Assembly: GCF_011745625.1 (NCBI RefSeq)
Contig: NW_027191470.1
Span: forward strand, 310,001-374,000
Length of the DNA stretch: 64,000 bases
DNA from: Cladosporium halotolerans
Lineage: Eukaryota
Reading direction: 5' to 3'
Shown: piece by piece, positions 46,687 through 62,700 of the stretch
How the letters are laid out: every line of letters starts with the position of its first letter
Numbering within the stretch: position 1 is the first letter of the stretch
Notes under the pieces: generated by a model
The model's database searches: none
Told to the model about the DNA's origin: nothing
What the model saw: only the letters and a program-made list of their open reading frames with translations
Made by a program: the position numbers and the translations under genes

Positions 46687-46821
46687 CGCTAGCCGCTTTG
46701 GAACTTTTCGCGCCAAGATTGCCCGACTTTCTCGGTCTCGCCTCTTGCCTGGTTTGCTATTGCATCTCCCACAGCGCTGCGCCAGCAACTCTGTGCCGGA
46801 GACAGACGCTTTTTCGAAACC

Positions 46822-49800
46822 ATGGCGGGAGAGGAACAGACGCACCGGGCGCATCGCCCGGCGAAGAAAGAGAAGGCGAAGACCTCCGGACAGCCTAACC
46901 CAAAGGCTTTTGCTTTCTCTGCTCCCGGCAAACTCGCCAAAGTCGCGGCGCGCAGCGGCGATGTCAAGGAAAAGAGATTACATGTGCCTCTGGTGGATAG
47001 ACTGCCGGAGGAGCAGCCGCCGCTCATTGTCGGCGTGGTCGGACCGCCGGGTGTTGGAAAGACGACTTTGATCAAGAGCTTGGTGAAGCGGTACACGAAG
47101 CAGACGATCTCGCAGCCGCAGGGCCCGATCACGATTGTTACAAGCAAGAAGAGGCGTCTGACCTTCTTCGAGGTGCCATCAGACAGCCTGGCCTCCGCGA
47201 TTGACACAGCAAAGGTGGTGGACATTGTCCTCCTCATGATCGACGGAAACTTTGGCTTCGAGATGGAGACCATGGAGTTCCTGAACGTGCTCTCGAGCTC
47301 CGGCATGCCCGGCAACATCTTCGGCATCCTCACACACCTGGACCTCTTCCGCAAGCAGGACGCCCTCAAAGCGCAGAAAAAGAGGCTGAAGCACCGCTTC
47401 TGGAGCGAGCTCTACCAGGGCGCGAAGCTCTTCTACCTCTCCGGCGTGATCAACGGCCGCTACCCGGACCGCGAGATCCTCAACCTCTCGCGCTTCCTCA
47501 GCGTCATGAAGAACCCGCGCCCGCTCGTCTGGCGCAACAGCCACCCCTACGCTCTCGCCGACCGCATGCTGGACCTCACGCCGCCCACCAACATCGAAAA
47601 AGACGCCAAATGCGACCGCACGATCGCCCTGTACGGCTACCTGCGCGGCACCAACTTCCCCTCGCAGGACGCGCGCGTGCACGTCCCCGGCATCGGTGAC
47701 CTGAACGTCAGCCAGATCGAGTCGCTCCCGGACCCGTGTCCCACGCCGCAGTACGAGCAGGCGCAGGAGAAGGCCGGGCTGATCAAGAAGCGCAAGCGCC
47801 TCGACCAGAAGCAGAAGGTGATCTACGCGCCCATGAGCGATGTGGGCGGTGTTTTGATGGACAAGGACGCGGTGTACATCGATGTCAAGAGCAACAATTT
47901 CGACGCGGACTCGGATGAAGAGGGCGAGAGGGGGTTTGGCGAGCAGATGATGGTTGGGTTGCAGGGAGGCAAGAAGATGCTCGGCGAGGCTGACCAGGGC
48001 ATCAGCTTGTTTGGGAAGGGCGACAGGATTCAGACTGTGGAGGATGACGAGGACGATGTTCAGGACACTGGAAGGAAGGGCCGCCGCATGCCTACGCTCG
48101 CCAATGGCGAGGAGGGCGAGGAGGGTGACTCTCCTGACGACGAGGGATTCGTGAGCGCTGATTCTGACGACGACGCCGACCTCGAGCGCTTGCAGCAGGC
48201 GCCTGAGAAATTGGGTCGATCTCGCAAGGACAAGGAGAGCAAAGATAAGGAGGTCGAGGGCGATATTGCTTTTGCCGACTCGGACAGCGATCTTGGTAGT
48301 CTCTCTTCGGTCTCTGATCAAGAATTTGACGAAGGTGAAGGAGACGAGGACGAGGACTCAGAGGACTTCGACGATGAAGACGATGGCGAGATCCGATGGA
48401 AGTCACGATTGGCAGAGCAGGCGCACGCAAGACACGGCCGCAGGCAACCATACCGGGTCGCCGAGCTTGCGCGGATGATGTACGACGACATGTTGTCTGC
48501 CGCGCAGGTCATCCGCAAATGGCGAGGGGATGATTCCGAGGAGGCAGGTGGAGATGAGGGCAACGATGACGAGGACGAGCTTTTCGAGAAGAAGCGCCCC
48601 GGCCAGAGTGACGACGAGGACCGCATGATGCCACAGTTTGACCACCAGGCGCTGGAAGACAAGTGGACCAATGAGGAGAACATTGAGGCGTTGAAGCAGC
48701 GCTTTGCGGCAAGGCAGCCTACGGGCGCCAACGCGGAAGAGCTGGGCGAAGGATTTGAAGGTTTCGATGGAGATGGAGAGGGCGGCGATGACGACGAAGG
48801 CGATGGAGAGTTCGAGGACTTGGAAACGGGTGAGGTTCATGCTGGCGGCGATGGCGAGGAGCAGGAGGCTGAAGATCTTGAGGATGAGCGTGCAAAGAAC
48901 GCACGCCGTAAGGAAGAGCTCAAGCTCCGTTTCGAAGAAGAGGACCGAGATGGATTCTTGAACCCGAAGAACGCGAACCGTGAGGCTAATGGTGAAGCCG
49001 CGGAGCGGGAGTTCGGAGAAGATGAGTGGTACGACGCCCAAAAGGCGCTGCTCCAAAAGCAACAAGACATCAACCGGAGAGAGTTCGAATCACTGGACGA
49101 AGCCTCAAGAGTTCGCGCTGAAGGCTACAAAGCTGGTACTTACGCGCGACTTGTGCTTCACAACGTCCCTGCCGAATTCATCGAGAACTACAACCCTCGC
49201 TACCCTCTGCTGGTTGGTGGCTTGCAGCCTACTGAAGAGCGCATGGGATTCGTGCAAGTTCGCATCAAGCGTCACAGATGGCACAAGAAGATCTTGAAGA
49301 CCAACGACCCTCTGATCTTCAGTTTGGGCTGGAGGCGCTTCCAGACGACACCTGTGTACAGCATCAGCGATTCGCGAACGCGGAACCGCATGCTGAAGTA
49401 CACACCAGAGCACATGCACTGCTTCGGAACCTTCTACGGCCCCCTCGCAGCGCCCAACACAGGTTTCTGCTGCGTGCAATCCTTCTCAAACAAAAACCCC
49501 GGCTTCCGCCTCGCCGCGACCGGCGTCGTCCTGAACGTCGACGAAGGCACGGAAATCGTCAAGAAGCTCAAACTCACCGGCCACCCCTACAAGATCTTCA
49601 AGAACACCGCCTTCATCAAAGACATGTTCAGCACCTCGCTCGAGATCGCCAAGTTCGAGGGCGCCTCGATCCGCACCGTCTCCGGCATCCGCGGCCAGAT
49701 CAAGAAGGCGCTCAGCAAGCCCGAGGGCCACTTCCGCGCCACCTTCGAGGACAAGGTGCTCATGAGCGACATCGTCTTCCTGCGCGCCTGGTACCCCGTG

Positions 49801-50331
49801 CGCCCGCACCGCTTCTACAACCCCGTGACCAACCTGCTCGAGCCCGGCGCCGCCGACGACTGGGCCGGCATGCGCCTGACCGGCCAGGTGCGCGCCGACG
49901 CCAACCTGCCCACGCCCAGCGAGAAGAACTCCGCCTACAGGAACATCGAGCGCCAGCAGCGCCACTTCAACCCGCTGCGCGTGCCGCGCAAACTGCAGGC
50001 CGACCTGCCCTTCAAGTCGCAGATCGTGCAGATGAAGCCGCAGAAGAAGGAGGGCTATGCGCAGAAGCGCGCGGTCGTGGCGGGCGGCGAGGACCGCAAG
50101 GCGCGCAGGCTCATGCAGCAGGTGCAGCTGCTGCGGAACGAGAAGGTGGAGAAGAGGCGCGCGAAGCAGGAGGAGCGCAAGATGCCGTACAAGGCCAAGG
50201 TGGCGGAGAACGAGGAGATGAAGAAGGCGAGGGAGAAGAGGGAGAGGGATGAGTTTTGGCGGAGGGAGGGGAAGAAGAGGGGGAGGGAGGAGAGTGGTGG
50301 TGGGGGTGGGGGAAAGAGGGCGAAGAGGTAG
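46822..50331 (+). CDS. BMS1: Ribosome biogenesis GTPase Bms1
   Basis: Motifs [20 protein letters not shown]-loop [33 protein letters not shown]; acidic middle region; C-terminal [18 protein letters not shown] and [17 protein letters not shown]. Confidence 0.98.
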
Positions 50332-52395
50332 ATGTGGGAGGTCGGAGGGTTTTGAGGCATGTGGTGTGTAATTTGTGGTGTGTATCTCATATATGTATCC
50401 ATCGGGATCAAAGGTGTTCGTCACTTCTCACGCTATCATGACGGCCTCTCAACCAGCATCACAGCACTCCTACGCACCATACGACGTACACATGGCAAGG
50501 CTAGCAATCCCCTAACCAAACCCCGGAACAACACTCCGCATTGCAGCTGTATATAACCTCAGAACACCACTGCCGTATCACCGCGAAACTCCCGCGGAGG
50601 GCCAACGTCAACACCAACATCTACCAAAAGCCCAGCCAATAGTCCAAACGGGCGGCGCCCAAAACGGTTGTTTCTGTACGTGCGTTCGTTCGCCGTTGCC
50701 CATCCCTGGATCTGCACTCGCGCTCCGGAGCTGCCAACGCTCGAACAGGACGGCGCACGAGCTGGAATGCCGATTTTGGGGGTCGGTGGGTCAGGTGGTC
50801 GTCGTACGGTCTGTTCAAGGGCTGTTTTTGTGCACAATGTACAGTCATTATTCTTCAAGTCATGAGACGCGGAGAGGTTTGGGGGAGGATAAAATGCTCG
50901 CTTGGTAGGCTACCGTGCCAGATGTCGTATTTTTAACTTTGCGGACGCGCCCGGCGTTCGAGGGCTGGGTTCGCGCGAGGGGTCTGAAACTGAGACCTGC
51001 GACTACTGAGGGTCTGGGTCCGGGGACAGGGACGGACAGACAGAGGTGTGAAAGGACAAGGCGAGACGAGGCGAGACGAGACGCGGGACGTCCCGGACAC
51101 GAATGTACGAGGGATTGCCGTGCGACATCGTCTGATGGAAAGCCCTATGTACTTGACACGCGGCTTGGGGAGTGGTTATTTGCTTGGAGATTGGGAGGTG
51201 CTGGGAGGAATGCGGGCAGCCGGGTGACGTGGAGGGCGCGCGGGCGCGAGGATTCAGCCGGCGGTGGGCTGAGGATTGAGATGTACAGATGATTACCCTA
51301 CTACTGTGCCAGGAGGCGGCGTTCGGCATGCCGAGCAGGATTCTGAGGCAGGTTGGTGTTTCAGGTTGGGTGGTGGTGTAGGGGCCTCGTGGGCGCGGGT
51401 GAGCGTGCGCGCAGGGATTGGGGCGAGATGCCCTCGATGGGCCACGCGGATCCGGGTGCTGCAGTGCTGCTCTCATCGCGGCGTGGTGTGATGATGGCCG
51501 CGGTGATGATAAGCTGCGTGGATGTCGCGACTGCGGAGTGGGGGATGTGTGATTGAGTGAGGCAGGGCGGAGCTAGCGGCGGGTGAAGAAAGGGGTCGTA
51601 CCTGAGCATCTTCATCGCTGCGAGGGTGCAGACGGCTCACGGCCGAAGATGGCTCTGCACTCTCCGAGACGCTCCACAGTGGGCGGTGGTAGTGTTGGTA
51701 GTCTACCGGACGGCGGATGGCGCGCAAGCCTGCCGCCCGGCTGCCTGAGGATGGCGCGCACCGCTACCGCCCGGCTGCCTGAGCCCACTGCCGGCTGCGG
51801 CCAGGCGAGCCCGAGCCAGGGAGGCCGGGCGGGAGCTGCGTGGAGGATGCGGGAGGAGATGCTGCTGCCGGATGTTGGTAGAAATGTGTTGAACAATACT
51901 ACCTGTCGACAGCGTTCGGAGTGGGTAGTCGCAGGTGTGCATACACTACTGAATATACTGTATTATTGTGTTACTTCTATAGATAAATACTTGTACCAAC
52001 GGCTTGCGTGGCGGGCTAAGGAACAGCCTGGGGACGCTGGATCGTCGGCGCAGCAGACACCCACCGACGCCCTGCCCTCCGTCGCCCGTGGGCCGTGCCC
52101 GCATTCAGGGCTGCTGCCACTTGCGCCCTCCCGCCTCGTCTGTGCCTGTCGCTCTGCCAAAGCCATACCGCACCACCGCGCAACACAACCCTCACGTGGT
52201 GGCGCCTGCCATCTGCCCTGCACCGCAACACCCCCCCTCCTCCGCGCCCACTCCACCGCTGCACCGCCGCGACCGACCTCTCCCTGCCTGATCCTCCCCT
52301 GCATGCCCGTCTGAGGCGCGGCGTGAGGCCCCATCGCTGCCGCTGCTGCTCAAACACCTCCACCACCACCGCCGCCCACCCACACCTCACCGGCC

Positions 52396-55300
52396 ATGGA
52401 GTCGCCCGCGCCCGAGTCGCCCATGGAGGGCGAGGACGCCATCTACCCGTGCAAGGGCTGCGGCGAGGTATGTCCTCTCTCTGCCCTTACTTCCGCCGCA
52501 ATACCTCGCTGACATTGGCCTGCGCAGATCCTGGAGGAAGGAAAGGCTTTCGAGCTGGGTTCGTATCTCCACTCCCGACCGCACGCGAAAAGCCGCCATC
52601 TAACACTTCCACAGCCGGCAACAGATGGCACATTGACTGCTTCCGATGCAACACCTGCGGCACCCTGCTCGACTCCGACGCCAACCTGCTCCTCCTCGGC
52701 GACGGCTCCCTCATCTGCAACAACTGCACCTACAGCTGCAATGCCTGCGGGAACAAGATCGAGGACCTCGCCATCCTCACCGGCGACCAGGCCTTCTGCG
52801 CCAGCTGCTTCCGCTGTCGCAATTGCAAAAGGAAAATTGAGAATTTGCGTTATGCGCGCACTTCGCAGGGCATCTTTTGCATGAGCTGCCACGAGAGTCT
52901 GATGGCACGACGGCGAAAGAAAGCAAAGGGGACAAAATCAGCCACAAGCGGTACCAATGGCCCCGGGTCGACGACCACCGTGGAGAAGGCTCTGCCCTCA
53001 CTGCCACCCGGAGCTGCCACCGAGAGTGCCTTCTCCCCTGAGCTTGAGACGCCGCCCGCGGAGCAGTTTTCGGCCACGCCGAGCGGTCGGCGACCTTCTG
53101 CGCAGAGGACACTGCGCTCTGAAAAGGATACCCCGGCGAGTAGCTTCAGAAGAGATGTTTCGCCTCTTTCGGACGAGGCGCGCAAAGGTGGGTTCACATG
53201 CGCTCAGTGGCTGAAACTGTTCCTGAAGACGGCTGACACACTTCCACAGATGGCCCTACCCTGCCCGCGAGTACTTACAAAGAAGGCCGCGGTTCGCGCA
53301 TGTCCTCGCTCTCGGATGACGGCGAGAACGAGGGCTTCCTCCCGATGGCGTTCGACCCCAACCCCGCTCCGCGACCGTCTGTTATCCCCCGAAAACGAGT
53401 ACCTAATCCCAACGACGCATCACCTGCCGAACCGCCGCCGCCGAGAGACTACTTTACTGGTAGGACGACTTCGAAACCGCACAGAGACGTTTTGCGCGAG
53501 GATCGGCCATCTTCTTCAAGATCCGTCTCCACAGAGCGCGAAGGCAGTCATGCTCCGCAGCTCTCTAGTCAAGCGAAGGGTAGTCCGCACATCGCATATC
53601 AAGAGAAGGGACGACCGCAGAAGCGCGTCACGTCTGGACAGAACACCCCGTTGTCGTCGGCTTCTCCGGCTGTGGGAGGCGCTCAACAAGAAAGGCCGGA
53701 GCGCCCGAAGATGCAGACGCTTGACACCAGCTCCTACACGCTAGGACGAAATGAGGGATTCAAGCTTCAAGACGTACCCAAAACGAAGAAGTCGCGGAGC
53801 GACTCGAGCAAGGAGAACAAATCGCCAAGCCTCGTCTCACCGATTGATGCGGACGACAAGGACCGCCATCTGGACCGGACGATATCCGCATCGCCTGTTT
53901 CTGCAGAATCGCCGCAGTCAGGCATCAATCCATTCGATGACCCTAGACGAAAGGAAGGACACCCTTCAGCTCAAGCGCCTGCGCTGTCGAGATTTCCAGA
54001 CAGGCCGGCCCGTGGAGACTCGCTCGCTGCGTCCTCTTTGAAACCAAGCTCAATACGCTCCTCCCCAGAACCACCCACCCCGACCACCAATGCGACATCT
54101 CTGAAGCCATCACATGGACGCCAGGAATCTGCATCTTCAGTACCAGGCTCATTCGTTGATGCCCAGAGCACAATATCCCGCGACAACAGCCGTTCCAAGG
54201 CGATAGAGTCCCCTCCTGTTCGTAGCAGCTTTGATGCGATCCCACCGAGAGCGAGCAGCCGACCTTCTGCGCCGAGCAAATCGGTTGGCAATAATGGCGA
54301 TTTCATTGCGCCGCGATTGCCTCCTCCGCCGCCTCCGGCCAGCTCGCACAGAGCACAGGAATCTATCAGCAGCATTCAAGATACGAAGTCTGACGGTCAG
54401 CTCTCTCCTGCTCTGCGAAGCGCCGGATTGCCGAAGCACAGCGCGGATGGCTCGTTTTCAATGGAGGAAGAGATGACACGGATTTTGCGAGGAGACAAGC
54501 CAAGTGGTGACCGAGGAGAGGCTTCCATGCTGCGACGGGTGTCGAATGCTGTCAAGCACGGCCGCAGCTTCAGTGACAGAGGCGTCCCCAAGAACGGCGC
54601 GCCCATAGAGCCTGCATTGACCACACCGATGATGATCAGCAGTCCGATCATGAGCTCGCCTTCTGCGAAGGAAACGCCAGAGTCCATGCGGGCGTCACTG
54701 AGGCGTGCGCAGGCGAAGATCGCCGAGCTCGAAACGCAGAACAGCGCGCTGGAGGAGAGAGTCAGCGGCTCGTCGGACATCAAGCAGGTGAACAGCGAAC
54801 TGCGCGAGAAGCGCACGACGATGGCGTTCCTCGACACCCAGAGGGAGATGGTCGTTCGGGAGTTGGAGGTCATGACCGATCATCTGGGTAAGGTCAAGGA
54901 CAAAAACCAGCCACTGGATCTGCCTGCGCTCAAGGATTCGATCTTCCGTGAATTGTCGGAGTCCCTGCAGAAGCTGAAGGATCATATGGGTGGCCAGATT
55001 GAAGATCTCATTCGCAAGCGTACGGAGCTTACGGACGAAATCGGCAACTTGATTCAGATGAAGGACAGAGGATTCCAGGAGTTCGAGTCGCTATCGACCA
55101 AGAACGCGCAGCTGGTGGAGATGAATAACAGCCTGCTGCAGAACATCCAGGACCTCTACAAGTCGAACCGCGGAGCTGATGGCAAGGGCGGCGCGAACGG
55201 CCTGGGCATCTACCAGCCCGGCGCAAAGGGAGAGAAGCAGGATGTGCATGAGATGCGCAACCTCAACATCGTCCACACCGACGGCTCCATGCCCCACCTT

Positions 55301-56380
55301 CTCCACGAGACGGAGGCGGAACCGGCAACCGTGCTGACGGCACCCCAAGTTGTCAACATACGCAAGGGGCAGCCGAAGAAATTCAATTGGCGCAAGGGAG
55401 GCGAGAAGATGGCCAAAAACGTTACAAAGGGCCTCAAGGGCGCCTTCGCGACCGACCGCGTCCAGACCAGGGAAGGTCTCGAGATCGGCACTCCCTACGG
55501 CATGACGCAGCAGGCAGTGGGAGGCGGCGAGGCGGGCTCGTTCAACGCCAAGCAAGGCGCGCCCGGCACAGGAGCAGGGTTTGGATTCTTCGGGCAGAAG
55601 AATGGAGGCTTGAAGAACGGACAGCTGGCCGGCGGCAAGAACAGCAGCAGCACGAACCTGGCGGCGCCGTCGAACGATCCTTCTGGTAAGTCAGGGACAT
55701 CTCTGCCCCCTCAACGTCTCTCCGAACATGCGCTAATGTCGACTCCAGTCCTCTTCGGCACCGACCTCGAGCTCCGCTGCGAGTTCGAAAAGCGCCTCAT
55801 CCCCGCCATCGTGACCCGCTGCATCGAAGAGGTCGAAGAGCGCGGCATGGACATGGAGGGCGTCTACCGCAAGTCCGGCGGCAGCGGGCAGGTGAAAGCG
55901 ATCCAGGCGGGCTTCGAAAAGGAGCCCAGCAGCTACGACATCTCGGACGAGGACCTCGACATCCACGCCGTCACCAGCGCCCTCAAGCAGTACTTCCGCA
56001 AGCTGCCCACGCCCCTCATCACCTACGACGTCTACGACTCGCTGCTCGAGGCCGGCGCGCTGTCCAACATCGAGGGCAGCGAGAGCGGCCCCAACCGCGA
56101 AAAGCAAACCCTCGCCCTCCGCAGCGCCGTCAACGACTTGCCGGAGCACCACCGCAACTGCCTCGAGTTCCTCTGCCACCACCTGCGCCGCGTCATGGCG
56201 CGCCAGGACAAGAACCTCATGACCTCGCTGAACCTGGCCGTCGTCTTCGCGCCGACGATTATGCGGCCGAGCAGCATCGAGCGCGAGATGAGCGATATGC
56301 TGGCGCAGCGGACGGCGGTGCAGGCGCTGCTGGAGCTGGGGGAGGGAGTTTTCGGGGAGGAGAGTGATGAGGAGGAGTAG
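52396..56380 (+). CDS. LIM-domain Rho GTPase-activating protein (Rga-type), 5 exons
   Basis: Exons 52396..52467, 52528..52558, 52615..53187, 53250..55685 and 55749..56380, all in frame. Two LIM domains (CKGC...WHIDCFRCNTC; CNAC...CASCFRCRNC), a coiled coil, and a RhoGAP domain (RGMDMEGVYRKSG, LKQYFRKLP, NLMTSLNLAVVFAPTIM). Confidence 0.93.
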
Positions 56381-57707
56381 AGAGAGGGAGTTGCATGTTT
56401 TCTTCTTTTCCTTTTTATTTGGGTTTTGGGGCTTTTGAGCGGCATTGCGTGCGGCGGGGAGTGGCACGTGGGATTCCTCACTTTTTCCTCTTGCTTTTCT
56501 TTTTTTTTTTTCTATCTCTTCTTTTTCTTTCCGTCTCAGATGGAGATGCCCATCCGCGGCCGTTCTGCTTTTCCCTTTTCCCTTTTTTTTCTCCTCTCAG
56601 AAGCGGAGGGAGGAAGGAAAGACCCCGCGACCCGCCGCCACCACCTCTCCCCCAAAAGAGCCGGGCCACTACTGGTCGATTGTTGGATGAGATCAACGGA
56701 AGAGAATGGCGCGGCGGGCCGGGTCTGTGGTTGAAAGGACTTTTTTCTGGGGGGTTTCGGGACTGATTGATTGACTGGCTTTGTGTACGAGAGATGGGGA
56801 TGGGACGCGTGCGTCCTCGGACGAGAATGCAAGCAGGATGGGGTCTATCTTAGGGGGGGAGGGCCAGACAGACAGACGAAGAGTGGACGAGGCAATACAT
56901 CGATGTTGAATCTTTTTTCTTGACAATCTTGCGCCGGTGTTCTGCTGTGATTGTGTTGTTCGTGTTCGGATACTGGAGCGTTTTTGCAGAGATGGGCGTT
57001 CCTTTCGCTGACTAGCTGCCATTCCATCGAGCCCGTACAACTTTCTCGCCTCGCTCCAGTTAGTCCGCTCTTGTTGAGGATTGATACAACAAAATCAGCG
57101 CTGTGAGCTGCACTTGGTGTGTCCCATGTAGCAGTAGGGTTGGACACCTGAGGCATCCATCCTGTCAGTAAGTGAAGTCCGGAAATTGTGGGTAAAACGC
57201 TCGCGGATCAGACCGTCGGTGATGGCCTGAAGTGACCATCACGACAACAGGGATTACGGAAGAGATACGATAATTCTAATATCCAATACTCGTCTTCCGA
57301 CCTAAAGACGTCCAAGCTTTCCTGTCGCGTTCTCCCAAGACAACGATAAGCTCACGGCAGGGATGGGGGGAAGAAGCGGGGTCGACTTGGGGGTAGAAGC
57401 TTGACTCGCGCCTCGCTAGCGGTGTCACGGTCGCTCGACCTCTTTCCTCTATTGGTCGATAACCTCGATACTACTGTGACGGACGGGCGTGGCTAGAGCA
57501 GAGATAGCACGCTGGCGGGTGGAGATGTCGCGTGGCCCGGATGCGACCTCAGAGGGCGCCGTGTCGTACGGCACTTTTGTTGAGACGGTGAGCTGTGTCT
57601 TGTTTTCTTGCGATGCACTTCTGCTGATTGAGTAGGCTTTGACGAACGACGCGACAAGAGACGTACATGGGCAGTGTGTGAAGCGAGACCGCAAGTCTTC
57701 GTCTAGA

Positions 57708-59523
57708 ATGGGTTCGAGCGATGAAGAGCGCCATGAATCGGTTGCGAAGGTCGGCGGCGTGACGATTGGGTCTTTTGCTGGCGAGGAAGCACGTCAGGGA
57801 ACCGATCACGAACATAGTCTGTCTCTGTTCGAGGCATTGAAGCTATACCCGACCGCGGTCGGCTGGTCGATTTATTTCTCACTTGGAGTATGCTCCCATC
57901 ACATATCAAGTTTACTGGGCTCACGCTGATCGAGGTGCAACAGGTTATTATGGCAAGGTAAGGCACTAATCCTGGCTGGACTGTATGTTACCATGTCACG
58001 TTCTAACTTGACGAAGCTTCGATCCACAACTGCTCGGCAATCTCTATGCTACACCTGCTTTCCAAAGGGACTTCGGATACCAATACAACGGCGAATGGAT
58101 CATATCGGCGCCCTGGCAAACGGCTCTCTCAATGGGCAGCCCCATCGGCCAAGTCGTCGGCGCCTTCTTCGCCTCATACCCCATGGAATGGTTCGGGCGA
58201 AAGAAGACTTTCGGCGCCTGCGTCGTCATCACAGCAAGCTTCGTCTTCATCCAGTTCTTCGCCAGGTCGCTGCCCGTCCTACTCGCAGGAGAACTACTAG
58301 GCGGCCTCGTGCTAGGCTTCTACATCGTCGTCGCCCCCGCTTACGCGTCTGAGGTTTGCCCTGTTGCGCTGCGAGGCATCCTGACGTCCTGGATCAATCT
58401 CAGCTTCGTCACGGGCCAGTTGATCGCCAACGGTGTCATTGCTGGCACGTCGAAGCTCGACAACCACTGGGCGTACTCGGCACCTTTCGCGGCGCAGTGG
58501 TTCTGGCCGCTTGTCATTTTGATCATCTGGCCTTTTGCTCCGGAGTCTCCGTACTGGCTTGTCCGCAAAGGTCGGATGGACGACGCTGAGCGTTCTCTGC
58601 GTCGTCTTGCGTCGGAGAAGATCGATCCGAAGCCTACGCTTGCTATGATTGTCGAGACTGATCGGCTGGAGCATGAGATGGAGGCGGGGAGCACGTATCG
58701 AGACTGTTTCAAAGCTATCAATCTCAGGCGGACTGAGATTAGCGTTGGCGTTTACACTATCCAAGGGTATGCTGATCAGTGACAATGATGCAGTGACCTG
58801 GCTAACGATGTGATAGTGATCCGACTCATGCCTCGCCCCCACAATCCATAAACCAATATCCAAGGACCCCGTTCCATGCTAACCAAACTCCCACCCCTAG
58901 TCTTCTCCGGCATCTACCTCGTCGGCTACGCAACCTACTTCTTCGAACTCGCCGGCCTCGCCACCTCCCACGCCTTCGCCATGGGCGTCGGCTTCCTCGC
59001 CCTCGGCTTCCTCGGCACCTGCTGCTCCTGGATCCTGCTGAGCTACTTCGGCCGCCGCCGCATCTACAACACCGGGCTCGCCGCGCTCATCACCCTGCTC
59101 TTCATCATCGGCATCCTCGACTGCATGCCCCACTACTCCTCCAACCCCGCGCTGGCCTGGGCGCAGAGCAGCCTGATGCTGCTGTGGAACTTCACGTACG
59201 ACCTGTCCGTCGGCCCCGTGTGCTTCGTGCTGATCTGCGAGACGAGCGCGACGCGCGTGCGCAGCAAGACGATCGCGCTGGCGACGGCGGCGCAGGCGGT
59301 CGTCGCGATCGGGATGACGGTTGCGATTCCGTACTTGATCAACCCGGACCAGGCGAACGGGAGGGGCAAGATTGGGTTCTTTTTCGGTGGGCTTTCGCTG
59401 GTGTCGTTGCTGTGGGCTTGGTTTAGGGTGCCGGAGACGAAGGGGAGGACGTATGAGGAGTTGGACATCATGTTTTCGAGGGGTGTTGAGACGAGGGCGT
59501 TTAAGGATTATCGAGTTGAGTGA
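57708..59523 (+). CDS. MFS sugar porter, maltose/alpha-glucoside permease-like, 4 exons
   Basis: Exons 57708..57887, 57944..57957, 58017..58765 and 58901..59523. Motifs WFGRKK, YASEVCPVALRG, PESPYWL, FGRRRIY and PETKGRTYEELD. The third intervening sequence (58766..58900) needs two-step splicing, as described in findings. Confidence 0.92.
58766..58900 (+). other. Putative [D1,2] spliceosomal twin intron (stwintron)
   Basis: An internal intron 58767..58816 (GTATGC...GCTAAC...TAG) splits the external donor G|TGATC. The external branch point GCTAAC is at 58878..58883 and the acceptor TAG at 58898..58900. Only this route restores the reading frame. Confidence 0.8.
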
Positions 59524-59743
59524 AGCGGATGCATGAAGTATAGCTGTCGCCTTTTTGAGTGGATGATGATAAAATCGATTGTGAAGAATGCCATGTGGTA
59601 TGCGCTCCTATGCGCCGGTGTCATAATGCAAGAACCTCCTGCCCATGCCTCAACGCCGACTAATGCCAAAAATGAATGTAGTCTTGACCAGAACCATTCG
59701 CATGGCACATCCTAAGCTCAGGTAGCCAGCCTGGAATGCATGC

Positions 59744-62700
59744 TTACTCAAATCCACTACCACCCGCAAAACCCATCCTGGCCATCGAGCTGCTGTTCGC
59801 CCTACGCAGCTCAGCGATCTTCGCCGTATTCTCCGCCCTCCTCCTGGCGCTGGCCTCAACGATCGTGCGCCTCTCCTCGGCCCTCGCCTGGTAAGCCAGC
59901 GAGCTCTTCTTGTTGCCACCGACTCTGGCACCGCCACCGATCGTCACGCCACGATCGTTGCCGCCTCCAGTAGTGATACCTCGGTCATTGGCACCAGCGC
60001 TGGCAATGTTGGTAGTGGCGCGGCGGAGCAGAGATGGAGTCTTGGAAGCGCCGCCGCTAGAGCCGCCCGTTGCCCAGGCTGATCGGCCGTCGGCGGAAGT
60101 CGAGCTACTGCTGCCACGCTTGAGGCTCAGGCGGTCGACAACGGCTGGCTTTGCGGCGGTTCGGCGCTGTGGTCCCGGGAGACGAGCTGGCGGCGGCATC
60201 ATCGCCTTGTCCTCCATCGATTTCGGGTTTGGGGCAAAGCCGCCGTCGTTCTGGCGGGTCATCTCGGCTTCGATTTCGTCGTAGTCACTGTCATGTGGCG
60301 AGGGACCGGATTCCGTTGGCTCGTCTTCGATCTCGAGATCGGATTCGTCGTCCATGACCGATGGGCCGACAAGTGTCTGATCCGGCTCGTCGAGAAGGAA
60401 GCTGAGGCTTTCGCGAACTTGGTTGATGGATGTCGGGCGAGAGAAGGCGGCGTCCGCCTCCTTAACACGGCGCTGCTTGGCGGGTGGCCGTGCTTGGGAA
60501 GAGTCGTCGCCATCTTCCGCAGGCCTCTTGTTGCCGCTTATCTCTTGCAAGGGCACTCCGTCGACCTCAGGCTGCGTTTGCTGTGTTGACTGATCTTCAG
60601 TATCTTGTTTCTCCTCCTCTTCAAGATCAATCGCATCCTCCGCCTCCTGTTCGTCATCATCGGCAATGGCTTTGAGGAAAGCATCTTTGCCCTTGCTGTG
60701 CTTGCCCGTCTCGGCCCAACCCTTGACATTCTCGTCCTGAAGGAGCAGCTTGCGCTTGCGAGTTTCCTCACGCAGACGCATTTGTCGGCGGCGGGCGATG
60801 TAGTCGTCTTCATCTTCGTCAAGATCCCAGGCCCCACGCTGCCTACGCCTGAAAGCGCCGGTCGTGATGTCTTTGTAGAGCTTCTTCGTCGCCTCCTCCT
60901 CGGCAACACGCTCACGCGCGGCATGGTGGGCAGCGATCTCGCGTTCGTCCACCTCAATGTGCGAAGAGTCGATCATGGCTTGATCCTCGGCTGTCTCGGG
61001 CGCGATCATCTCTGTATCGTCGCCACCGAGGCCGGCGTACTCATCCTCGGATTCCTCGGCCTGATCGTCCATCATCCGCTTCATCTCCGCGTTGGCCTCG
61101 AGGCGATCGCCTGCATTGAGATCATCCAGGCGCCTGCGCTTCATCTCCTTGAACGCGTCCTTTTGCGAAGGCAAGGCCGGCTCTGCCTCATCCTCGCTAT
61201 CGTCCGCAGCCAACTGTTTACGTTGTTGTAGACGACCACGTCGGGGTGCGGCCTGTGCTGGGCTTTCGCTCACTCGCAATTGGACGGTAGACTGGGTTTC
61301 GTGATCGTCCTCGGCAGCCGTGACGAGAGTTGATTCTCGCTGCAACTGCCCACGACGGAGTCCGGTCCATGGAGAAGGCAAACCGGGGTCTTGGGTCGGC
61401 TCCCAGCCAGGGGTCTCCGAGAGATCGCTTTGCTTCCTGGTAAGAGCCGGGGCCGGAGTTTCAGGAGCTTGTGTGTCCCAGCCAAGTTGTACTTCCTGGC
61501 TCTCGGCGACACTGGGTCCCGTCACAAATTGAGTTTGGCTCTCGTCGTTCTCAACGTGCGTGTCCATGGCAGGCAACGAAGGAGGCAGTGCCGCGCTGCC
61601 TGGTGGCGGCACATATTGCAGAATATCGAAGCTGTCCTCCTCTTCCATCTCCTGTGAAGGGGCTTCCATCGTGGCATTGAAAGCCTGGGTTGCAGACATC
61701 ATGTTGACGTCCGCTTTCGCGGCGCCGAATCCGAAGGCAGCAAATGGGTCATCCTCTTTGTCATTATCGTTGGCGGATGCAGGGGCTGCAGCAGTCGAGG
61801 AAGTCGTCTTGTCTGCTTCTTCCTGCTTGTCATCGTCATCTTCGTCATCCTGGATAATATGCGATTTGCGAGCTTTGCGTGAGGCTGCGGGTTTTGAGGG
61901 ATCCTCGTGAGGTTGATCGGCCTCCATCTCGTCGTCATCGACACCAACGTCCTCTTCTGCCTCCTCATCCTCCTCATGCTCCTCCTCCTCCTCCTCGCTT
62001 TCGTCCGCGGCGTCGTCGAGGAGCTCGTTGCCACCATCAGCGTCGTCATCCTCACCAGCTTCTTCGTCCCCACTCTGGTCATAGTAATCTTCATCTTCAG
62101 TCTCATCATCACTCGCCTCCATGTTGCCTTCACTTTTCGCCTCCTTGTTTGCAGCCTTCTCCGCCTTTCTGAGATTCTGCGCATCCAGACGGGCCTTTTC
62201 CAACAGATTTTCGAACTCCTCTGCTTCTTTCTCTTTCTCCTCGGCCGTCTGGATCACAATACCTTTGACCTTCAACTCCGCAAGGCGTTCCTGCTGCGCT
62301 TCAAAAGCCTGCTCACGCGCCTTCTTTCGGAGTCGAGCTTCTAGCACTTGCGGGTGGACTGAGGGTTTGACGTTTGTAGGCCTGTTCGGTTTCGCGTCGG
62401 TGTGGCCTAGGTGGGAAAGATGGCGGAGGTTGTGGATTGCGCTGGAGTGTGCTTCTTGCTTCTTGATCGGTTTGACTCGATCGAAAACTTGGAGGTGCTT
62501 CGGCAAGGGTTGCAAAACCTCAAGATCGTCATCGCTTTCGTCGTCTCTGTAGGTTTGAGGTGCAGACTTCCTGCCCCAGCGAGCAATTTTGGAGCCTTGC
62601 TCACGCGACGCCGAAGGCTCGGTGACGTCTGCTTCTTGTTTTCGCCGGGTGGGGGACTTGACAATTTTGTCGACATCCAGCAGCTCCTGCTGATCTTCTT

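Follow-up and report, generated by a model that had tools for sequence, protein, structure and literature searches.

Both the sequence of the window, the 64-kb stretch of DNA that was analyzed as a whole, and contigs assembled from public runs indicate, with a probability of about 0.88, that positions 58766–58900 are a true spliceosomal twin intron (stwintron) of the [D1,2] type within a gene encoding a 521-aa MFS sugar porter. The splice elements are present in the sequence, and the mature junction and the intermediate RNA are both found in contigs. The nested structure is more than a chance match of motifs, because RNA-derived contigs carry both of the predicted junctions. A preliminary description of this DNA had read the region as a [D1,2] stwintron, and the sequence layout, the reading frame and both RNA species agree with that reading.

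Splicing of the region would proceed in two steps. In step 1, the spliceosome would cut out a canonical internal intron of 50 nt (58767–58816), after which G58766 would adjoin T58817 and a new donor, GTGATC, would be created. In step 2, the external intron of 85 nt (G58766 plus 58817–58900) would be removed via the second GCTAAC element and the TAG at 58898–58900, and the final join of G58765 to T58901 would restore an in-frame Val codon.

Gene model, splice elements and reading frame

The transporter gene is located on the plus strand. A 5' leader intron (57588–57635, 48 nt, GT..AG) is marked by a joint at 57586>57635 (cut +1) in contigs of the runs X16 and X6, which also cover the coding part of exon 1 (57708–57887, with the ATG at 57708). 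Intron 1 (57888–57943, 56 nt, GTATGC..CAG) and intron 2 (57958–58016, 59 nt, GTAAGG..AAG, supported by sequence and contigs) enclose a mini-exon of 14 nt (57944–57957), whose letters stand between both sides in the X16 and X6 contigs. The contigs show a joint at 57889>58014 with 9 intervening letters, which together with GT and AAG on either side give the mini-exon; its frame was checked. Exon 3 (58017–58765) ends on G58765, which opens the Val codon and on which record 6 of the X16 contigs also ends, and exon 4 (58901–59523) runs from T58901 to the TGA stop at 59521–59523. The complex intron between exons 3 and 4 thus covers 58766–58900, or 135 nt. In X16, the exon contig has 28 loose letters upstream of 57538 that do not match the window there, and these may come from another leader exon farther upstream or from an alternative start; the X6 contig is collinear to 57500.

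Scripted joining of the exons across 58765/58901 gave a 521-aa MFS sugar porter. The Pfam profile Sugar_tr (PF00083) was matched at positions 18–260 in exon 3 and 267–452 in exon 4, with E values of 1.5e-46 and 2.5e-31, respectively. The closest database proteins were MFS sugar porters of Mycosphaerellales and Cladosporiales, with 80–85% identity over exon 3, and for several of the closest relatives the source names were general alpha-glucoside permease or maltose permease. Both the profile along the whole protein and the names of its relatives place it in the sugar porter family (PF00083), alpha-glucoside/maltose permease subgroup. The gene had been described as an alpha-glucoside transporter, which these relatives and the profile support; by homology, its substrate is probably an alpha-glucoside or maltose.

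Among four large frames scanned, no gene for an alpha-glucosidase or a regulator was found beside the transporter gene. A frame for a BMS1-like ribosome-biogenesis GTPase (46693–50328, plus strand) and a LIM frame and a RhoGAP frame (52020–56377, plus strand) are located upstream, and an MRC1-like gene on the minus strand is convergent with the transporter gene, the two stops being about 220 nt apart (59524–59746). One X16 contig of 4952 nt spans from exon 4 across the gap between the transporter and the MRC1-like gene.

At the end of exon 3, ATC CAA (58759–58764) is followed by G58765, G58766 and G58767. G58766 supplies G1 of the external intron's split donor; X16 record 7, the intermediate contig, still has it, and the mature contigs do not. 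The internal intron (58767–58816, plus strand) consists of the donor GTATGC (58767–58772), 28 nt, the branch element GCTAAC (58801–58806), 7 nt and the acceptor TAG (58814–58816), all of them canonical elements, and its 50 nt lie within the required minimum of at least 42 nt. TGATCC begins at 58817, directly after the internal TAG, so the layout is that of G/GT....AG/T, with G58766, GTATGC at 58767, TAG at 58814–58816 and T58817. The remainder of the external intron (58817–58900, plus strand, 84 nt, or 85 nt with G58766) contains its own GCTAAC (58878–58883) and the TAG at 58898–58900. After the first cut, the external intron reads G+TGATC, 56 nt, GCTAAC, 14 nt and TAG, 85 nt in all, which is a GT..AG intron with a branch element of its own. 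The re-formed external donor, GTGATC, is non-consensus, with T rather than G at +5. The preliminary base-by-base account of these elements matches the sequence at every position.

Two other internal acceptors of the form AG/T, at 58779/58780 and 58793/58794, would define introns of 13 and 27 nt without a branch element; they were rejected because they are too short, lack a branch element, and because the RNA shows 58816/58817. The [A2,3] route is ruled out, as had been argued earlier, since base 58901 is T. The two nested parts differ in base composition, with C at 0.16 and G at 0.30 in the internal intron versus C at 0.43 and G at 0.11 in the external remainder, a contrast in a small sample that might reflect separate origins.

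The frame of exon 3 is open to a TGA at 58780–58782, and that of exon 4 is open from 58852 to the stop at 59521–59523. The last base of exon 3 is the first of a codon, and G58765, T58901 and C58902 together encode Val. Among the four joins compared, only 58765/58901 gave the 521-aa protein. One-step excision of 58767–58900 would leave an extra G and shift the frame, yielding 489 aa including 175 out-of-frame residues; unspliced RNA would reach a stop 5 codons past the junction; and the intermediate RNA would encode 517 aa, of which 203 are out of frame. Late stop codons are therefore to be expected in the intermediate, whose altered frame (58817–59423, +1 relative to exon 4) is open for 203 codons, and in the one-step missplice, with 175 codons.

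All 18 aligned orthologues read ..IQ and then V with no gap, while exon 3 of the window ends on Q and exon 4 starts on V. Since the orthologues are contiguous across Q/V, the required junction is fixed independently of any splice-site argument. The mature joint can be placed at three shift-equivalent positions, at which the excised stretch would start with AG, GG or GG and never with GT; a single GT..AG excision therefore cannot produce it, and no single canonical excision of any kind gave an in-frame mRNA. The earlier frame arithmetic, in which the one-step route leads to a frameshift, is thereby borne out: only 58765/58901 is in frame and collinear with the 18 orthologues.

RNA evidence and alternative explanations

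Contigs of four public runs (X1, X6, X15 and X16) were aligned to positions 57500–59800 of the window at a likeness of at least 90. The X16 contigs were 100% identical to the window, with four of four pieces in the 99+ class, and came from the same organism and study as X15 but from another sample. They lack the leader intron, intron 1 and intron 2, and X16 was therefore taken as RNA-derived; on the same grounds of missing introns, the runs that carry splice joints are most probably RNA. X15 contains a long DNA-like contig that is identical to the window, has no joints and shows the same GGG, and it may be the source data set of the window.

The mature joint, 58763>58899 with 2 ambiguous letters, corresponds to 58765/58901 and was present in contigs of X16, X1 and X6, i.e. 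in three runs from three studies, as the preliminary description had predicted for mature mRNA. In X16, it is carried by record 8, a contig of 58 nt with a word depth of 28.5. X6 contains one contig of 6200 nt with the mature joint and more than 255 letters on each side, and X1 a contig of 203 nt with the mature joint and 82 letters on its shorter side. Both of these runs are from other studies and only 95–99% alike to the window, and they confirm the mature reading frame in relatives, not the stwintron itself.

The predicted intermediate was also found. A joint at 58765>58816 with 1 ambiguous letter corresponds to 58766/58817, and the skipped 50 nt are those of a GT..AG intron. The joint is carried by X16 record 7, a contig of 143 nt with 0 other letters and a word depth of 23.5, which covers 58736 to 58765 or 58766 and then 58816 or 58817 to 58928. 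This contig thus keeps 58817–58900, a stretch that X16, X1 and X6 lack in their mature contigs, and enters exon 4 up to 58928. The intermediate was seen in one short contig of one run, in which the exon-3 side of 30 letters (31 with the ambiguous G) equals the minimum for a bridge. No X16 contig over 58767–58815 or with the one-step 58766/58901 form, a missplice of the type described in PMC12403724, was found among those aligned; their lack says little, because contigs drop rare variants.

The 58766/58817 RNA is probably the precursor of the mature mRNA, and the claim that splicing takes place in two ordered steps is supported insofar as both RNA species exist, the order of the cuts being deduced. 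The word depths of the two junction contigs in X16, 23.5 and 28.5, sum to 52, which is near the 54.7 of the contig for exons 1–3, as far as so rough a measure of abundance in one run can be read. A plausible reason for the high depth of the intermediate is the weak second donor, whose T at +5 may slow the second step. Words of the gene were also sampled in X1–X14 and X18–X20, which bear about a dozen organism labels from 13 studies and hold about half of the gene's sampled words; their occurrence in libraries of other organisms fits a ubiquitous environmental or plant-surface fungus.

The GGG run at 58765–58767 had been questioned in the preliminary description. If one of these G were an assembly error, or if the gene were a frameshifted pseudogene, a single ordinary intron would be sufficient. 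Homopolymer errors are common, and the same GGG in X15 is not independent if X15 is the source of the window. However, two G precede TGATCC in the X16 intermediate, and a single one is left in the mature contigs, whereas a genome with two G would leave only one in the intermediate. Two retained G plus a GT donor require three genomic G, and the assembly-error reading therefore fails. The mature mRNA is full length and in frame in three runs of three studies, which also contradicts a pseudogene with transcripts joined only at 58766/58901, and we consider the chance of either practically negligible. A different proposal would be that 58766–58900 is excised in one non-canonical GG..AG step, the 58766/58817 RNA being a dead end that arises from use of an alternative 3' splice site. 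In its favour, the external donor needed by the two-step route is weak, with its T at +5, and the depth of the intermediate-like contig in X16 (23.5 versus 28.5 for the mature form) could be that of an accumulating end product. However, GG..AG introns of the U2 type are extremely rare, the intermediate places GT exactly at the needed base with AAG before it, and the aligned contigs gave no sign of other non-canonical splicing in the gene. The two-step logic has also been verified experimentally in other [D1,2] stwintrons, according to the accessible part of PMC5587772, and one-step excision appears very unlikely.

It is also possible, although unlikely, that the 58766/58817 RNA is a stable and perhaps regulated isoform with a retained external intron; its product would be the N-terminal half of the transporter with 203 out-of-frame residues attached, and the output of functional transporter would be lowered. 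The similar depths of the two junction contigs in X16, the sum of which comes close to that of the upstream exons, and the long open stretch of the altered frame are in keeping with such an isoform. So is the 6200-nt contig of X6, in which the mature joint is crossed and no alternative path is reported, since the proportion of the two forms may vary between strains or conditions. However, word depths of contigs reflect abundance poorly, and here they come from one run only. A search among 8000 scored candidates found no database protein with the out-of-frame exon-4 tail at E ≤ 1e-5, which is weak evidence against this reading. Such an isoform would be compatible with the stwintron explanation and would not replace it.

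Distribution of the intron position and annotation

An alignment with orthologues had been called for, and a metagenome scan based on the orthologue alignment found 79 loci, of which 68 had both junction flanks; the 11 without a flank were left out. In all 68 loci the Q and V codons are adjacent and no intron is present. The gaps seen in L020, L045–L047, L049, L058, L068 and L071 are due to a different intron about 16 codons downstream, and the gap in L060 is due to an upstream intron. The intron is also absent from the closest loci (L004, L009, L010 and L012), which have 88–90% identity over exon 4. Between exon 1 and exon 3, where the gap in the window is 130 nt, 10 of 67 loci, including these four, have a gap of 139–156 nt, which fits the two-intron layout with a mini-exon; 33 of the 67 are intronless there, and 24 have a gap of 61–91 nt, apparently one intron.

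The only named Cladosporium protein among the matches listed, P0001 of C. fusiforme, is also the closest named protein; it has 90% identity over exon 4 and contains an insert of 56 residues, placed exactly between Q and V, that starts with G-T and ends with P. Because the insert breaks up a conserved transmembrane stretch midway, it is read as an unspliced intron, and the protein suggests a canonical phase-1 intron of 168 nt (G/GTAC...CCAG/TC). Its second residue, T, is incompatible with a G/G/GT start. When the 56-residue insert was compared with the three-frame translation of the window intron, the best score of 24 was reached by 423 of 500 shuffles, and no homology was detected. At residues 215–250 or so, P0001 has about 33 further extra residues before APAYASEV that the window does not have, and these are probably another unspliced, species-specific intron in the gene model.

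The absence of the intron from 68 of 68 loci, together with the ordinary intron that C. fusiforme appears to have, suggests that the position is lineage-specific: one species would have a canonical intron there, the other a stwintron. The comparison of orthologues thus yielded intronless loci throughout and, as deduced from a protein, one species with an ordinary phase-1 intron. It is tempting to combine these observations into a recent intron gain in a Cladosporium-like lineage, conversion between an ordinary intron and a stwintron in close species, and a rate-limiting second cut that leaves about half of the transcripts as frameshifted intermediates and acts as a throttle on the transporter. 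We consider this combined reading doubtful. If it were true, motif censuses that demand G at +5 would systematically miss a class of stwintrons.

A gene predictor limited to single GT..AG introns is bound to truncate the transporter gene, shift its frame or read through it. It had been forecast that automated annotation would probably mis-model the gene, and this receives indirect support from the C. fusiforme orthologue, whose model reads through its intron at this place. No protein model of this gene from this genome was found in the protein collection, and among proteins of 136–436 aa there was no truncated gene model closer than 88% identity. The search with the out-of-frame exon-4 tail, a mark that mis-spliced models of this or related genomes would bear, likewise gave no hit at its cut-off, which is weak evidence.

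Comparison with published stwintrons and other elements

[D1,2] stwintrons are a well-known kind of intron, of which the one in the window is a further, well-supported example. Hundreds of them are in print: a single Hypoxylon genome has more than 100, and sister copies across the Xylariales number in the hundreds, as stated in the accessible parts of PMC9024468 and PMC12403724. No report of this particular stwintron was found in the paper texts searched. Searches for Cladosporium in the stwintron literature returned a general review only, and searches for twin introns together with maltose permease returned nothing. The words 'maltose' and 'glucoside' are absent from the text of PMC5639578, PMC12403724 and PMC9024468, 'permease' and 'sugar transporter' from that of PMC5639578, and 'MFS' from that of PMC12403724 and PMC9024468.

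Stwintrons are natural experiments on the origin, movement and recognition of introns. The present one is useful because both of its junctions are in public RNA contigs and its intermediate may be abundant, because it lies outside the Hypoxylaceae and Xylariaceae, where most stwintrons have been catalogued, and because its position is missing from every homologous locus compared and its re-formed donor is invisible to the published motif.

That motif, search model A for [D1,2] stwintrons, allows 24 external donors, all with G at +5, according to the accessible part of PMC9024468. By-eye comparison with model A as given there showed that the internal intron conforms in its leading G plus GTATGC, its donor-to-branch distance of 28 nt (25–80 allowed), its D-Y-T-R-A-Y branch motif, its branch-to-acceptor distance of 7 nt (4–20) and its H-A-G followed by T, and that the external intron conforms in its donor-to-branch distance of 56 nt (25–110), its second branch motif, the following 14 nt and its H-A-G. 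The remainder of the external donor, GATC, is not among the 24 allowed, and the published census method would therefore miss this stwintron. Model A is a search heuristic and is not part of the [D1,2] definition, and PMC9024468 itself states that stwintrons with less canonical elements escaped it. Validation of stwintrons in the field, as set out in the accessible parts of PMC9024468 and PMC12403724, consists of exon fusion and 'splinter' reads. Here the 'splinter', from which the internal intron alone is removed, was found in X16, and precise exon fusion in X16, X1 and X6.

Unique [D1,2] stwintrons of Pezizomycotina include one in the DHA1 antiporter gene of Aspergillus nidulans (accessible part of PMC5587772) and 81 sequence-unrelated ones in Hypoxylon sp. 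CO27-5 (accessible part of PMC9024468). Like them, the stwintron of the window has an external donor split between G1 and T2 by an internal U2 intron, normally spaced branch elements and acceptors, two of each, and an exon fusion and a 'splinter' that are detectable in RNA data; if it were removed in a single canonical step, one G would be left behind and the frame would shift. Unlike them, it is located in a sugar-porter gene of a Dothideomycete and has an external donor with T at +5, and the contig depth of its intermediate is near that of the mature form, as measured in one run.

Repeated, internally symmetrical 'sister' [D1,2] stwintrons are described from Hypoxylaceae and Xylariaceae in the accessible parts of PMC8469720 and PMC12403724. 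The stwintron of the window shares with them the [D1,2] layout and an intron position that is not common to relatives (the latter as described in the accessible part of PMC12403724). In contrast to sister stwintrons, its 135 nt fold no better than shuffled sequences (z = +0.55; 140 of 200 shuffles at least as stable), and within the 64-kb window a search for similar copies returned only chance matches of 10–11 nt. The features of a repeat element, namely many similar copies and terminal inverted repeats or a stable structure, were thus absent within the 64-kb window.

Introner-like elements of Dothideomycetes are reported, in the accessible parts of PMC3609843 and PMC4457414, to decay until they are indistinguishable from regular introns. 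The intron of the window resembles them in its lineage-specific position in a Dothideomycete and differs in being nested, in having no stable structure and in the lack of a further copy in the 64-kb window. Neither the fold nor the copy search ties it to sister stwintrons or to introner-like elements, although a decayed origin of that sort is possible.

Finally, the proposed mechanism can be compared with recursive splicing in the long introns of animals, in which the first splice regenerates a 5' splice site for the second. In both cases the first splice makes the 5' splice site that is used by the second. In recursive splicing, however, the regenerated donor is made up of the end of the upstream exon and an intronic GT within a very long intron, whereas here a complete small intron lies inside the donor of another small intron.
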